Shown: positions 5,496 through 28,700, counted from the stretch's first letter. The stretch: DNA of 64,000 bases from an uncultured Bdellovibrio sp. (GCA_963932905.1 CAWVRN010000005.1:119293-183292), one strand, 5' to 3'. Notes: a model not told the origin generated them from the letters alone. Made by a program: numbers and translations.

Positions 5496-5548
5496 TCGGA
5501 GGAATCTATATCATAATGCTGAAGGATGTCCATGGAGAAAGGATTGTT

Positions 5549-7459
5549 ATGATTTTCAAGCGTGGGTTTGTTGCCATTTTGTTTACTTCGTCTGTTGTTT
5601 TTGCTCAAATAGGAGCAAAAACAGAATATACAAAATCGTCATATTTTGAACCAGGTGAGGGAATTGTATTTCCAAATTTAGAATTGGAATACTCTCTGGA
5701 CCCTAAAACCCCGAATCAATTAAAAGTAGGAAATGCTATTTTCAATCAAAGTACCTTTTTGATTGAATTGAAAAGTCTTTATCAGCTAGATCCCGTTTTT
5801 AGGTCTCCTTTAAATCAAAAAAATGAATGGTCTTTGATTCTTCACTGGCCAAAGCACTTGTTTCCTGCTCCCGAGATAGAAATCATCTCGGGTAGTGGTC
5901 AATCGGTTTGGAGAACGGCATTGACTGAATCAGATTTGAAAGCCTGGCGGGACCGCACTGATGGGTGGAAAAAGAAGTTAGGAACTCCAAAAATTAATCC
6001 AACAGTTTTGAATTCCAGTTTTGGTTTAATTGGTGGAAGTGAGGTCAATCGCCTGCGAGATTTGTTAGCTAAATCATTTAAGTTTTGTATTTTTAATAAA
6101 ACAGGAAAGGGTGATTCTCGGTATTGCTCCCCGTTGATGGCGATCAGACAAGGTAAGAAATTATATGCATACAACGATTTAAAAAATCGTGTGTTGATCC
6201 AAAATGAAGAAGCGAAATCTGAAGATATTGTAAAAATGGATCCGTCAATTCCCGCTACTTTCTATGCAGAGTTCGCACTTGGTGGGAGTTACGAATTTAA
6301 AACAGAGGTACCGAAACCAGATTTAGTGGACATTGCAGAAATTAATGAAAAAACGTTGAAACTAACTGGCTATGGTAGCAAACCGAATATGCCGGTACGA
6401 ATTATTTCAAAAGAGGAAACCTCGAAATTAACTCGTTTTTTCGGTTTCGAAGCAACGATTAAAGACGATCGCGAATTTTGGGAAATTATGATTCCTAAAT
6501 CTTCACCTTATTTGTACTTCCCTGGACCTGCCGGAGGTGTTTTTCGCCAAGTTATTGCGGTAGATGAGGTGCCAAAAGCTAAATCACGTATCTGGGTTCA
6601 CGAAAAAACGCCCACATCCATTTATGGAAATGAAATTGCGATCAAGGCTGTAAAACCGCAAGGATCGACCGTAGAATCAGATCAGAATTCTATTGCTCCA
6701 GGTGCTACACCAAGAGAATTCATCTGGAATTTTCGCGCTGATAAAAAAGGTGAGTTAAACAAGAGTTACCTAACAGTCACACAAGGTGGAAAGAAATTCA
6801 CATCGTTTTACGAAGTCTACCGATCTCAACCAAACGAAATTTCGGGCCGCTTCACGGGTATCTTGTCGAGTTCGGGCCAAGTTATTCTAGGTGAAGTGTC
6901 TTATAATCGCTGGTTTGAATCATTACTGGGAAAAAACTCATTCTCGTTCCAACGATGGGGTTTAAATGTCCGTTATTTTAAATCATTCAACCCATTATAT
7001 GTATCAGACAGCCAAAAAGAAAATCTGACGTCATTTACAGGAGACATCAAATATAGATTCACGCCAGGTGTGTGGACTCGCGACGCTTCCATGGGTGTTA
7101 TGTTTGGATACCAAGACTTAGTCTTTGGTGATTTCAAAGCCACAATGGCCGGAGGTGGTTGGTTCTGGGCCCGCTCGATGCCAAGAGTCTTCGATAGCAT
7201 ATTCAACTTGATACCATTCATGAGATATCCAAAATGGGTTGATATGGAAGTCATCTATTACTTCTCGTCATTGAACTCGAACATCACACTCGATTCTCCG
7301 TTCAGTGTAAACTTCCATGGGCAAATTCTTTGGAGCAAAAGTTTCTTCGGCGAAGCGGGATTTGGTTTAAAACGTTACGCGTTCGTCGATAAAGACCTAA
7401 GTCAAAAAGCCGAGTTAAATACTTTCTATGGGACGGTTGGCTTAGGCATTAAATTCTAA
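5549..7459 (+). CDS. Secreted hypothetical protein with probable C-terminal outer-membrane beta-barrel
   Basis: Signal peptide after ATG 5549 (RBS AAGGA), amphipathic beta strands, terminal GLGIKF. Paralog of 45436-47166. Confidence 0.7.
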   Translation: MIFKRGFVAILFTSSVVFAQIGAKTEYTKSSYFEPGEGIVFPNLELEYSLDPKTPNQLKVGNAIFNQSTFLIELKSLYQLDPVFRSPLNQKNEWSLILHWPKHLFPAPEIEIISGSGQSVWRTALTESDLKAWRDRTDGWKKKLGTPKINPTVLNSSFGLIGGSEVNRLRDLLAKSFKFCIFNKTGKGDSRYCSPLMAIRQGKKLYAYNDLKNRVLIQNEEAKSEDIVKMDPSIPATFYAEFALGGSYEFKTEVPKPDLVDIAEINEKTLKLTGYGSKPNMPVRIISKEETSKLTRFFGFEATIKDDREFWEIMIPKSSPYLYFPGPAGGVFRQVIAVDEVPKAKSRIWVHEKTPTSIYGNEIAIKAVKPQGSTVESDQNSIAPGATPREFIWNFRADKKGELNKSYLTVTQGGKKFTSFYEVYRSQPNEISGRFTGILSSSGQVILGEVSYNRWFESLLGKNSFSFQRWGLNVRYFKSFNPLYVSDSQKENLTSFTGDIKYRFTPGVWTRDASMGVMFGYQDLVFGDFKATMAGGGWFWARSMPRVFDSIFNLIPFMRYPKWVDMEVIYYFSSLNSNITLDSPFSVNFHGQILWSKSFFGEAGFGLKRYAFVDKDLSQKAELNTFYGTVGLGIKF

Positions 7460-7474
7460 ATAAAAAATCCCAAG

Positions 7475-7713
7475 TTTTTTCGGGGGCGATAGACTCCCTT
7501 CTTAAGAAAGATTCCAGGTGTAAATGGGGATCTTTCTCTTGAATGGGAGTTTTCTTTTTTGGAGGACGCCCTCCAGGCTCGGCCACCGGTTGGCTACGCC
7601 AACAATACCGCATCCATGCGGCGGTGGAGCCTCCAAAAAAGAAAACTCCCATTCAAGAGAAAGACCGAGCTCGAATCGTTTCTTAAGAAGGGAGTCTATC
7701 GCCCCCGAAAAAA
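7475..7713. repeat. 239-nt double-stem inverted-repeat element (element 1)
   Basis: Perfect 35-bp arms 7475-7509/7679-7713 and perfect 35-bp arms 7531-7565/7630-7664, with a branched apical region. Confidence 0.95.
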
Positions 7714-7912
7714 TTCTCCACACCGCAACCTTTTTTATGACCATAGTTGTTGTTCCGTTCTTGAGATGCTTTTGGATCATAAAAAAAATGTCGGATAAAC
7801 CACGAAACCCACACAAGGCAAAACCCTCGCTTTCAAAATCTCGGGGGATTTTCCTCTCACTGCGCCAAGTCCTCTAGTCCCAAAACAATTCCGAAAACTT
7901 CGTGAAAAAAGT

Positions 7913-18156: not shown

Positions 18157-18687
18157 ATGAATTGCCCATGTGGAAATTCCAAACCGTATGAGTCATGCTG
18201 TGAGCCATTTATCAAAGGTACAGCGTTTCCTGAAACGGCGGAACAATTAATGAGATCGCGCTATACTGCTTATGTAAAAGGTGATGTTCAATATATTCAC
18301 GATACGTTAGCGCCAGAATCACGTCATGATTTCGATATGGCCAGCACTAAAAAATGGGCTCAACAATCAAAATGGTTAGGGTTGAAAATTCAATCGGCTC
18401 AGGGCGGAGCGAACGATAAAAAAGGTAAAGTAGAATTCACGGCGACCTACAATGATAAAAAAGAAACGCTAGAACATCACGAGGTGTCTGAGTTTCGTAA
18501 AGATGAAAATAATCATTGGGTGTTTGTCGGCGGTGAAGCCCACACGCATAAAGAAGGTGAGGGGCACCACCATCATCATACTAAAGTGGAAACTGTGGTT
18601 CGTGCAGAACCTAAAATTGGTCGCAATGATCCGTGCACCTGTGGAAGTGGTAAAAAATATAAAAAATGCTGTGGAGCTGCGGCGTAG
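18157..18687 (+). CDS. ychJ: YchJ family protein with N- and C-terminal SEC-C motifs
   Basis: [30 protein letters not shown] and [18 protein letters not shown]. Confidence 0.88.
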
Positions 18688-18705
18688 ATTTTTTGAACCC
18701 CCCGG

Positions 18706-18945
18706 TTTTTGGGAAGGGAAGAGACTTCTTCTTTTCCTTGAAGCTTGGTTCTGGGTGGTGCGGGGATCTTCCTTTTGAGATGCTTTTTTAAAAAGATATA
18801 AAAAAGCCTCGGCAGTCCTCGTCCGCGCTGAACGCGTGTCTGTGGAACTCATTTTTTTATATCTTTTTAAAAAAGCATCTCAAAAGGAAGACCAGGCTTG
18901 AATTGGCGCTTCGAGGAAAAGAAGATGTTTCTTCCTTTCCAAAAA
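18706..18945. repeat. 240-nt double-stem inverted-repeat element (element 2)
   Basis: Perfect 39-bp arms 18767-18805/18853-18891 and near-perfect outer arms 18706-18744/18908-18945. Confidence 0.95.
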
Positions 18946-19095
18946 TTACCCAAATACCCAAAAACTTAGATTTCGTCCATTTTCTTGGCTCTTCACAAGC
19001 TTGGCCGCCTCATTTCCTATATAATGGCTTTGGTGGCAGCGAATTCATTGATTAATTTCACGGGGGAAATTTAGAGTCGAATTGCCTAGGTAAGT

Positions 19096-25723: not shown

Positions 25724-28700
25724 GTTGTCTTGGGCTAGAGTCATCGTAACAAGCCTTACACTGCTAGCTTTATCAGCGTCGCTTTTGTCCTGTGGATTAA
25801 AAATTGGTGAATCCCCTCCCGCAACACAGATGCCGGGTTATCGCACGGATTCATGTTTTGATACAGCAACAACCAAATTTGGAGAATTCTTCACGGGAAC
25901 GGCTAAAGATGAAGAAGTTAGTGCTTCTTGGGACTGTTTCTCGACGATGATTAAGGATTTTAAGTCTAAAGTTCGTTGTAAAGTCAGAGACAAATGTTCG
26001 CCCGGCGAAATTGCACAGTTCGTAGAAGATAATTTCATGGACGAGAATACCGGCGAAGTGAAGCAAAAAGTCATTTCTGCGGAACTTCAAATACAGTTGA
26101 TGAAAGTTAAAAAACTATTTCTGGGTGGAAATACCGAGTTCATCAGCGGGGCAGAATTAGATCGCTTAGTAGATCTGTTAAATAATCTAAAAGGAATTTC
26201 TAGAGACATTAATCCTTCCATGAAGGTATTAACACTAAACTGGGAAAATAAACTACGTTCTAATGAGGTCAGTCTTTTAGATTTTGAAGCGGTGAATGAG
26301 AACCTTGTTAAAATCGCGCAGCGTTTTGCGGGCCTTGTAGATAAAGACGATAATGTTTATCGTTTTGATGATTTTGAAGGTTTAGTTACGGAAATGGGCC
26401 GTTTTGCTGGTTCGAATTGGTCTTGGGTGGCAACCGTTCAAAACTACTTGCCAGCGATTAAGCAGCTGAAAAAGTCGATCAATGGCGGCGATCAGGAATC
26501 GCTAAAAGACAATGAATGGAATTTGTTCCTGCTTTTGGGATCGCGCGCATACATTCAATTCCTACGTTACTATTATTTCATCAAAGATCTTGATCCTGAA
26601 TTTACTAGTCTTCGTTTAGCCTATACGGCACGTACTATTGAAGAGACTTTCGAAATGTTATACGATTTGCTAAGTTACAAAGAATCCAATCAAGTTACAA
26701 AGGCCGAGATCGAAGACCTTTTAAAGAGTTTTTCAAATATTTGGCCAGTGCTTAAAACATCGCCTGCATTGATTTCTGAAGCGATGAAAATTAAACAAGT
26801 TCTGATCGGTGGTTCGGAAAAAGGTTTTGAAAAAGACGATTTCTTACGCGCTCAAAAGAAAGTGAATCTAATCAAACAGATCGTTGAGAAGTTTACACCA
26901 TATTACCAATTTTACGGATTGAGCTGGCATCCAGAATTGTTGAAGCAAACAGAAGCGTTTGCTTATTTTGGAAAAGCGACAAAGAGTTTTGACGATATGA
27001 TCACCAAGATCAATGAAGAATTTAAATTTGAAAAAGGCTATGACTTTAAGAGCTTAATGAATTTAATGGCTGAAATCGAAAAGCTATATCCGGGGTTAAG
27101 CACAGATATGCCGTTAGGTAAACGTGTGGCTCAGTACGCCTGCTTGGCACAGTTGGGTAGTGATGTATTGTTAGACAAACAAAGCAATCAATCTAACAAT
27201 GCCTGCGAAATTATTGAACTTTCAAGTAGTGACCTGACTAAGTTGGTAAAAAAAATCGGACAGGCTTTAAATATTTTCTGGGACTACTACTACTTTATTA
27301 GTCGAACCAAAGTTGTTTTCAATGATCTAGAATGGCAGACGAAGTTAAAGGATTTTGGATACAACGTTGTTACCTTCTTGAAGTCGGCAGTTGAAGAACG
27401 AAAATCAAAACGTATTTCAAACTATGAAATTAAGGCGTTCATTAACGAACTTTCAAGTATTGATGTCATTCCTAAATCGATTAAGAAAACGACGATCGAA
27501 GCCGCAATTCAGCTAGCGATCACGAAGATTTTAGTGCCTGAAGAACTTAAAGGAAAGGTCGCTCGTTTTGATGGTTTTGAGCCTTATCATATCGAACAGT
27601 TGTATCGCGAAATTGATAACTATCTTGGCGTGAATATTTTTATTCACCAAGCGTATGAAAACAGAATTAATCAAAAGTATGACTATAAGTTTTTACTAGG
27701 TAAGTTTAAACAGTCGATCGCCAGTTCAACTAACCCGAATTTCAAACTCGGGATGACAGAGTTTGTGAGTAACTTCGAAACAAATTATCCTATGATTTTA
27801 ACTGCGGACAACCGACTGTTCTTTAATCGTAATGCAAGTCCGATCTATGATAAGCACACATTAGAAGCTTATAATATGCATCGCTTTTTGGCCGGGTTGC
27901 TACTGCGATCGTATGCGAAGCGTGATCCAAGCACGAAAGTTATTAGCAGTGTTTTATCTGAATGTGAAGTCAAGTCGGTGTTCTTAGAGCTTAAACCGAT
28001 GTTGGTGGATCTGGACGTTATTTCGGACAGTTCAGGTACAGGATTCATCGATGCCCGTTTTATTGAGGCAAACCTGTTCCTGCCTAAATCGGATGGCAAT
28101 GATACTGTTAGTTTCGGTGAGTTGGCGGAATTCGTAAGTTATATTTTGTCAGGTTTCACAATTGATGATTTAGCAAAAGCATCGATCGCGAAAGATTGTA
28201 AATTGGCGACAGTGGGTACCGACGTTCTTGTTGATCTGGCGTGTTTACGTGGTTCATATAAAAAGAATATGCCAGCGGTGCTGAACTCGATGCCTTCGTA
28301 CGTCACATATAGCCAAAAGGAAAATCCAACTGATTGGGATAATGCATTTTTAAATAACCTGAAAGCCGCGGGTTACAAAGTTAGACAGGATGCCAGAATT
28401 TCGCTTTCAGATGCCTCTTTGCTGCCACATATCTTGCAATATGGTGAAACTATATTTACAAAATTTGACGTCAATGCCGATGGTGTTATCGACAAAAAAG
28501 AAGGTATCCGTGCGTTTCCTTCATTTGCATTCCTTTTGAAAAAAGTAGCGCGTAAACAATTGGAAGCGGGCGACATTAAAGAGAGCGAACTTGAAGCTAT
28601 GTTCACATACATCCTTAAGTATGGGAAAATACCAGAGTGTAACAAGCCTTTCATCCTGCTTTGCCTATTTGATCGCAGTGTAACGAACTGGTTAGACTGG

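Follow-up and report, generated by a model that had tools for sequence, protein, structure and literature searches.

Two nested palindromes in the window

The window of 64,000 nucleotides (G000:C5:119293-183292), which is the whole stretch of DNA analysed, belongs to an uncultured Bdellovibrio sp. whose assembly, G000, comprises 4.55 Mb in 58 contigs with 40.7% G+C. Two long fold-back structures, elements 1 and 2, are situated in this window, each starting 15-18 nt past the stop of a plus-strand ORF (Table 1). A sequence-only reading had placed element 1 at 7475-7713, and all of its fold-back coordinates hold in an inverted-repeat search of the 64-kb window. For the upstream ORF, the stop at 7459, 15 nt before the fold-back, was given correctly, but the start is located at 5516 instead of 5549. 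The three-way junction proposed for the apex is reproduced by the minimum-energy fold, and consists of a closing helix, CCACCG/CGGTGG, and two hairpins, GTTGGC-TAC-GCCAAC and CCGCAT-CC-ATGCGG. The folding energy of element 1 is -159.4 kcal/mol, compared with -73.4 +/- 4.8 for 200 shuffles (z -18.1), none of which folds as well.

The second element suggested at 18706-18945 exists as well, with a layout like that of element 1 and likewise after a plus-strand stop. Its right loop is GACCAGGCTTGAATTGG, and its folding energy of -128.3 compares with -67.1 +/- 4.8 for the shuffles (z -12.8, 0 of 200 as good). The other five of the nine inverted repeats found in the window are only 24-30 nt long, at 70-73%. 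Furthermore, ORFs of 91-127 aa overlap both elements on both strands (7502-7816 minus, 7524-7877 plus, 18469-18852 minus and 18503-18778 plus). As both strands have them and they cross the variable arms, they are most likely by-products of the palindromes that gene callers may annotate. Any nested-palindrome fold-back copy of the family to which elements 1 and 2 belong is termed a rod below.

Table 1. Coordinates of the two elements and their surroundings, counted from the first letter of the window
Feature	Position	Strand	Basis or remark
Upstream ORF of element 1	5516..7459	+	647 aa, no Pfam match
Element 1 left flank, ATAAAAAATCCCAAG	7460..7474	+	variant of the family left-flank consensus TTTGAAAAACCCC(C)G
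Element 1 outer-left arm, 35 nt, T-run at start	7475..7509	+	100% complementary
Element 1 left internal loop, 21 nt, conserved GGGGATC at end	7510..7530	+	
Element 1 inner-left arm, 35 nt	7531..7565	+	100% complementary
Element 1 apex, e1-type three-way junction	7566..7629	+	minimum-energy fold, alignment
Element 1 inner-right arm	7630..7664	+	inverted-repeat search
Element 1 right internal loop, 14 nt, CCGAGCTCGAATCG	7665..7678	+	within the family's most conserved block, AAAAGGAAGACCGAGCTTGAATTG
Element 1 outer-right arm, A-run at end	7679..7713	+	inverted-repeat search
Element 1 tail, TTCTCCACACCGCAACCTTTTTT	7714..7736	+	variant of the family tail TT(A/G)CCCACGCCGCAGCC + T-run
Probable remnant: outer end and flank of a second, inverted rod	7828..7854	.	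read by eye
Upstream ORF of element 2, YchJ-like with SEC-C motif	18157..18687	+	stop 18 nt before the fold-back
Element 2 left flank, ATTTTTTGAACCCCCCGG	18688..18705	+	
Element 2, e2-type	18706..18945	+	inverted-repeat search, fold, alignment
Element 2 outer arms, 38 nt, 87% matched	18707-18744/18908-18945	+	inverted-repeat search
Element 2 inner arms, 39 nt, 100%	18767-18805/18853-18891	+	inverted-repeat search
Element 2 apex, conserved core AAGCCTCGGCAGTCCTCG...GGAACTC	18806-18852	+	
Element 2 degenerate tail, TTACCCAAATACCCAAAAAC	18946..18965	+	

Architecture and distribution of the rod family

The sequence-only reading had proposed a family and named a lack of further copies as a refutation; a family was found. 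BLAST, a whole-genome inverted-repeat scan and an nhmmer profile agree on 13 complete copies in G000, plus two cut by contig ends and one truncated, all of them intergenic. The nhmmer profile gives 14 strong matches together with two contig-end halves and the truncated copy. One copy is cut at a contig end (C13:110330-110471), another is divided over two contigs (end of C37, start of C18), and the truncated one is a left half (C19:63790-63944). BLAST of both elements against G000 returns family copies only. Altogether, 40 distinct full-length copies were collected from five genomes, namely G000 and four relatives.

The rod is polar. On its left end, a conserved flank, TTTGAAAAACCCCCG, precedes a T-run and an outer stem of ~35 bp; a conserved, asymmetric internal loop, with GACCGAGCTTGAATTG as its right side, separates the outer stem from an inner stem of ~35 bp crowned by the apex; the right end closes with an A-run followed by the tail, CCCACGCCGCAGCC, and a T-run. 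In the consensus of the 40 copies, the left half therefore reads flank TTTGAAAAACCCC(C)G, T-run, outer stem, left loop ending in GGGGATCTTCC, inner stem and apex, and the right half reads inner stem, GGAAGACCGAGCTTGAATTG, outer stem, A-run, tail TT(A/G)CCCACGCCGCAGCC and T-run, with GGAAGACCGAGCTTGAATTG as the most conserved block. The architecture first proposed was thus incomplete, as the conserved left flank and right tail also belong to the element. By eye, the tail is present in ~34 of the 40 copies, and the remainder show no recognisable tail except for one copy (G000:C19), the only one of the 40 in which the core is flipped relative to its flanks; polarity is kept in the other 39.

Two types of apex exist, e1 with the three-way junction and e2 with the core AAGCCTCGGCAGTCCTCG...GGAACTC, and the internal loops are the same in both. 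In G000, the e1 apex occurs in element 1, C32:19002-19243 and C8:~28395-28620, and the e2 apex in element 2 and nine others. Of 17 aligned copies, 16 retain the e1 apex, whose closing helix and hairpin 1 show covariation; the seventeenth proved to carry an e2 apex, and the MAFFT alignment of this set is too poor for the outer arms, which hence lie outside its consensus.

The tail motif has 17 matches in G000 at up to 2 mismatches, two at rods and 15 in scattered, non-repeated sequences, so it is regarded as a part of the rod; its standing as an independent repeat was rejected because the non-rod matches are not repeated. A pairing of the left loop with the tail and one of the apex with the right loop were considered from the sequences and dropped as too weak. 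Some tails and two apexes also contain the motif GGGGGCGCC(TAG); the genome has 23 occurrences of it, the majority in unrelated contexts. In addition, the apexes of L101 and L102 (G003) contain an inserted short motif, GGGGGCGCCTAG, at times in tandem, which is also found in the tails at G000:C29:15136-15165, C9:49912-49945 and C19:40950-40990 and is seemingly a small motif that expands or moves by itself.

Copies are present in four of the nine other species of the same genus and on 16 metagenome contigs. The four rod-bearing relatives are those closest to G000 by flanking-gene identity (82, 82, 78 and 77%, versus <=75% for the rest), a ranking that derives from one locus and has the same order at a second. 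A BLAST search with element 2 in 41 relatives matches seven genomes, of which five belong to the genus (G000, G003, G006, G008 and G009) and two have single matches of 29-32 nt at E ~1e-4. A 19-mer from the right loop, searched with up to 2 mismatches and with the reversed pattern as control, has 13 matches in G000, 10 in G003, 18 in G006, 6 in G008 and 3 in G009, none in the other five genomes of the genus, and 0 to 2 in each of the remaining 172 genomes of the family, which is the same order as the control. Four loop-motif sites in other genera (G017, G091 and G093) were examined and none is a rod. Thus no convincing copy was found in the 172 further family genomes by motif, or by BLAST in 16 genomes of the order's other families.

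On a wider scale, an 18-base core motif scanned in one genome per species for 185,579 species matches 68 stretches; multiple copies exist only in two Bdellovibrio sp. assemblies (10 and 4 loci), and the remaining matches are nearly all single and in unrelated phyla, as by chance. The 18-mer scan of metagenome contigs yields 28 stretches, 16 of them with rods. The phage and plasmid collections contain no match to element 2, and Rfam has none in the window at gathering score. Below threshold, the highest-scoring Rfam models describe plant miRNA hairpins (58 bits where 245 is required, and 38 where it is 150); they were set aside as generic long-hairpin models, the permissive threshold giving nothing usable. 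The proposal that the family is undescribed agrees with its absence from Rfam and from the phage and plasmid collections, and literature searches on palindromic repeats and MITEs brought up no paper on such a repeat in Bdellovibrio. The rods are a real, well-defined new repeat family, restricted to a sub-clade of a Bdellovibrio-like genus.

Stems drift and stay complementary

The arms of the rods had been described as different from copy to copy. They do differ; however, they are homologous and diverged, not unrelated, with a hypervariable middle. The accompanying idea, that structure is conserved while arm sequence is free, is borne out, as changes in one arm are mirrored in the other. In the e2-type set of 23 copies, the RNAalifold consensus contains 82 predicted pairs, and for 56 of these one or more copies differ at both partners yet still pair. 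Paired cells amount to 93.0%, versus 79.5 +/- 0.5% in 500 shuffles, and double-changed cells to 250, versus 67.7 +/- 6.9; none of the 500 shuffles reaches the observed value in any of the five measures. Sliding the partner by 1-3 columns leaves 22-33 double-changed pairs and 45-66 double-changed cells, compared with the observed 56 and 250. In the e1-aligned set of 17 copies, 31 of the 52 predicted base pairs carry double changes. At one position of hairpin 1, nine copies have CG and eight have GC, and three kinds of pair occur at each of two positions in the closing helix.

The same pattern is present between species. Six orthologous comparisons contain 66 stem pairs that changed on both sides and are still Watson-Crick, versus 22 that changed on one side. 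For the element-2 copies of G003 and G006, 54 pairs are the same, 8 are doubly changed and 2 are singly changed. In both ~35-bp stems, sequence evolves at about the rate of the surrounding DNA, yet the arms stay perfectly complementary because changes appear in both of them.

Selection on an RNA helix is expected to leave many G-U pairs on the transcribed strand, with the mirror A-C avoided. Long helices could be scored in 39 copies, the fortieth lacking one of >=15; of their 2569 stem positions, 2491 are Watson-Crick (97.0%), 28 are G-T (1.1%), 22 are A-C (0.9%) and 28 are transversion mismatches. Wobble is as rare as other mismatches and equal on both strands, so the pairing is a property of the duplex palindrome, and the rare, symmetric stem mismatches point to palindrome maintenance at the DNA level, not to RNA selection. 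Among the three origins put forward by the sequence-only reading, arm-to-arm correction of a cruciform or palindrome is therefore favoured by the strict Watson-Crick pairing on both strands; the structured RNA or 3'-UTR dsRNA element is disfavoured, as wobble pairs are not tolerated; and the mobile substrate gains from presence and absence at orthologous sites, whereas its HUH partner was not found.

Intramolecular template switching during replication (quasipalindrome correction) may copy each new arm mutation into the other arm or erase it, so that the stem sequence would drift while the palindrome stays perfect. The process has been described in E. coli, in yeast and in comparative studies, and is reported to homogenise the arms of inverted repeats, to invert spacers and to maintain hairpins (PMC7202029, PMC8604942, PMC8794818, PMC5941160). 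For the rods, template switching is deduced from the pattern of changes. It cannot account for the near-constancy, among paralogues and orthologues, of the left flank, GGGGATCTTCC, apex, right loop and tail, nor for the polarity kept in 39 of 40 copies, though perfect 35-bp inverted repeats would allow inversion. These non-drifting parts, with GACCGAGCTTGAATTG in the right loop, might be marks read by a trans-acting factor, most likely the enzyme by which the element was once spread and which recognises it as a folded single strand; if the rods influence adjacent genes at all, for instance by blocking transcription or as a 3'-end hairpin, this would be a secondary matter. The rods thus look like selfish or mobile DNA kept palindromic by copying of its own arms rather than a new RNA gene.

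A different account regards the rods as structured 3' untranslated region RNA, that is a protecting hairpin, an RNase III site or a read-through barrier, with the pairing selected in the RNA; it is unlikely. A co-oriented ORF ends 10-61 nt to the left of at least 21 of the 40 copies, and a transcript-linked role fits this position as well; in 15 of 40, a convergent ORF ends 47-120 nt to the right (several loci are too short to judge on either count), but many copies are antisense to the only nearby gene end. The apex covariation in hairpin 1 and the closing helix and the kept polarity agree with an RNA, as do the core and loops preserved in orthologous copies across species, whereas G-T pairs in the stems are no more abundant than A-C, no Rfam model matches, and the stem is followed by an A-run, not as in an intrinsic terminator. 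Moreover, whole elements are absent at orthologous sites, where the only visible replacement is an ordinary terminator. Palindrome maintenance in DNA is the likeliest cause of the free but matched arms, in a mobile or once-mobile element.

Filled sites, empty sites and paired rods

An empty-site comparison, which had been proposed along with the family, shows that both loci of the window are empty in some relatives. All nine relatives have conserved flanking genes at the element-1 locus, between which the intergenic DNA differs: 126 nt in G008 and 144 nt in G009, each with an ordinary terminator and little else, 421 nt in G000, and about 970-1040 nt in G003 and G006. The latter two contain a plus rod, 330-430 nt of unrelated sequence and a minus rod, with the tails pointing inward and the left flanks outward. 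G000 keeps element 1, the start of the spacer and, by eye, apparently the last ~27 bases of the second rod, which is intact in G003 and G006. A rod occupies the element-2 locus of G000, G003 and G006, but that of G009 (61 nt) and G001 (83 nt) is empty. In G006 (L008) and G008 (L116), a minus-strand gene of ~1 kb lies there between the YchJ-like gene and the next; judged from its sequence, it may be an alpha/beta-hydrolase. It is a remnant in G003 and absent in G000, so the intergenic region next to the rod has lost DNA.

Orthologous copies keep the core, the loops and the polarity across species whose flanking genes are only ~81% identical. Such persistence is unexpected of decaying selfish DNA, and suggests a function at each locus or ongoing conversion between copies. 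Element 1 and its G003 counterpart have only 56% of arm positions in common; thus, replacement of one copy by another is possible. No target-site duplication or recent transposition is visible among the assembled copies: no direct repeat was seen by eye at the flank and tail ends of 23 copies, the empty-site flanks are 73-78% identical so that junctions are not base-precise, and the most similar non-orthologous assembled pair is 85% identical. However, the split C18/C37 copy departs from C13:40444, by eye, at only two mirrored changes in ~30 outer-arm positions, and many G006 copies are situated at contig ends.

The occurrence of rods as inverted pairs around cargo DNA escaped the sequence-only reading. 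Seven rod pairs were found (G000:C29, G003:C62, G006:C33, G003:C143, G008:C193 and the metagenome loci L150 and L157), and all seven are in plus-then-minus order with tails inward. As G003:C62 and G006:C33 are orthologous and L157 may repeat G003:C143, the independent pairs number five or six. The spacers of the five genome pairs, the ones compared, have nothing in common beyond the tails, except in the orthologous G003:C62 and G006:C33; hence there is no conserved cargo or hidden gene. In the spacer of L096 (G003:C143; ~41330-41610 in contig coordinates), there is an ORF of 93 aa with a signal-like N-terminus, which includes a stretch, ANTNTTRTPEGGPYK, that may resemble the flagellar rod protein FlgC.

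These pairs bear on the reading of rods as structure-specific recombination or transposition sites that are recognised as a folded single strand, like attC or the ends of IS200/IS605, a reading that is quite improbable. It would assign the loop and apex to protein marks, the 35-bp stems to pairing spacers, and to tail-to-tail rods the movement of the enclosed DNA, an assignment that is equally doubtful. The inside-out conservation, with fixed loops and apex and free stems, is consistent with this, as are the uniform order of the seven pairs, their unrelated spacers apart from the one orthologous case, and the absence of the whole pair and spacer at the element-1 locus of G008 and G009; nevertheless, the pairs that count independently are no more than five or six. 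Rod orientation tends to follow the replication direction, agreeing with the sign of GC skew in 11 of 15 copies, but the trend is confounded with gene orientation. Furthermore, the attC-type GTTRRRY ends and a cassette array are missing at elements 1 and 2, and no candidate enzyme emerged from the Y1/HUH genes and the flanking proteins. The 24 proteins flanking 12 G000 loci are ordinary housekeeping proteins, among them UbiA, an ECF sigma factor, OsmC, ExbD, FtsW/RodA, DbpA, DivIVA, an ABC ATPase, thioesterases and YchJ; 10 are without a Pfam match, and none of the 24 has a transposase or recombinase domain by Pfam.

As to the HUH partner that had been proposed, genes of the Y1/HUH type (PF01797) occur in nine of ten genomes of the genus, rod-free ones included. 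The two RAYT-like, PF01797-like genes of G000, at C5:24792-25415 and C12:65796-66434, are flanked by two other REP families, the hairpin families GGTACCTCCTAACATTCTGGTACCC and GGTGCCAGCCTAC, which they apparently serve and whose arms are conserved between copies, in contrast to the rods. In G003 and G006, no RAYT match lies on the same contig as a listed rod.

The two families are observations in their own right. The first, GGTACCTCCTAACATTCTGGTACCC..., is a classical REP/REPIN family with ~17 hairpins of 67-106 nt and conserved arms (copies e.g. at C1:444687-444766, C10:71066-71143 and C2:4102-4180); it brackets the 207-aa RAYT-like gene at G000:C5:24792-25415, a weak PF01797 match located outside the window. 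The second, GGTGCCAG(G/C)CTAC..., forms hairpins of 51-53 nt (C9:46196-46248, C2:253888-253940, C24:40296-40348 and C5:103366-103416) and is linked to the 212-aa RAYT-like gene at C12:65796-66434. Separately, two 130-nt hairpins on one contig (G000:C3:181566-181695 and C3:188140-188269) have different arms of 19-23 bp and a similar GC-rich interior, the same pattern of free arms and fixed middle as in the rods, and both directly adjoin an apparent tRNA gene end.

That short-read assembly produced the rods as an artefact or chimera at palindromes is extremely unlikely. Contig ends do hold several copies, including many of those in G006, and one Logan contig folds back at the outer arm (joint 7509/7678, opposite strands), but orthologous copies with species-specific compensated differences occupy the same two loci in two other assemblies, rods occur on 16 metagenome contigs, and each half of element 1 is joined to its proper flank in Logan contigs from runs of two studies (7000-7614 with the upstream gene, 1 difference; 7668-7867 with downstream DNA). 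The concern, raised with the first description, that the arms might be assembly artefacts is thereby answered. A run of a third study, from a relative, covers parts of the element 1 region in its Logan contigs. No single Logan contig crosses the whole palindrome of element 1, so these contigs neither prove nor disprove the full structure.

Significance and comparison with known systems

In the rods, nature provides a clear-cut case of long palindromes with arms that have drifted between species without losing their perfect match, well suited for testing arm-to-arm correction by template switching in bacteria. They also carry a warning, since a functional RNA cannot be concluded from such covariation alone. 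A partner protein that reads the folded strand is hinted at by three features, namely conservation turned inside out, strict polarity and the placing of tail-to-tail pairs around foreign DNA; such a protein, if found, would add a new kind of mobile DNA defined by structure. In practice, Bdellovibrio-like genomes are affected by rods in two ways: short-read assemblies break at them, and they give rise to spurious ORFs.

Each rod runs from T-run through stems to A-run, and identity with an intrinsic (Rho-independent) terminator was rejected, as the short GC-rich stem with a U-run is lacking. A terminator scan found none formed by the rods on the gene strand; it reported a 5-bp hairpin at the left edge of element 1 on the minus strand and a weak one inside the end of the YchJ gene. 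Integron attC sites, 57-141 nt in length, are defined by structure, lie after gene ends, have unpaired marks in an imperfect hairpin and are recognised as a single strand; they have conserved RYYYAAC/GTTRRRY ends and stand in tandem cassette arrays beside intI. The rods resemble them in relying on folded structure over sequence, in their position after gene ends and in the unpaired marks within an imperfect hairpin. However, rods end in a T-run and an A-run and their copies are scattered over 11 contigs among housekeeping genes, and the identification with attC was rejected since neither the RYYYAAC/GTTRRRY core sites nor a tandem array is present. Should the recombination-site reading be true, the rods would extend the attC-like principle, structure instead of sequence, to a new, larger and nested form.

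Bacterial MITEs, e.g. Correia/NEMIS of Neisseria, are elements of 100-300 bp without an ORF, with hairpin-forming terminal inverted repeats, in intergenic positions near gene ends; they vary in presence between relatives and occasionally capture the DNA between two copies. The same terminal repeats recur from one MITE copy to the next and in a parent IS, and the copies are bounded by target-site duplications. Like MITEs, rods are short, contain no ORF and are present or absent at orthologous sites; in contrast, rod arms differ between copies, and neither a parent IS, by BLAST against G000 and among the 24 flanking proteins, nor a duplication, by eye in 23 copies, was found.

Quasipalindrome correction, a known replication error, is reported to make imperfect inverted repeats perfect, to homogenise their arms and sometimes to invert the spacer (PMC7202029, PMC8604942, PMC8794818, PMC5941160). 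It accounts for perfect, drifting stems without RNA selection; however, it is a mutational process and not an element family, and leaves the loops, apex, polarity and spread of the rods unexplained.

REPINs are REP doublets that form hairpins and are served by RAYT transposases (PMC3116915). Compared with REPINs as described there, rods are likewise dispersed, non-coding and extragenic, may form a long hairpin in single-stranded DNA or RNA, show compensatory changes, and occur as singlets, doublets and clusters (PMC3116915). Differences exist in the arrangement of the conserved parts: REPIN ends are conserved and the middle is free, whereas the ends and stems of rods are free and the apex and internal loops are conserved. 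Rods are also ~3 times longer, nested, with two ~35-bp stems, and polar, with a one-sided tail, and no RAYT adjoins a rod. Accordingly, of the features of a REPIN, the compensated, dispersed, extragenic hairpin is found, and the conserved REP ends and a flanking cognate RAYT are not. Taken together, elements 1 and 2 are probably REPIN/MITE-like nested-palindrome DNA repeats, with stems maintained by template switching and with loops and apex read in trans, and the family as a whole is REPIN/MITE-like with its conservation turned inside out.
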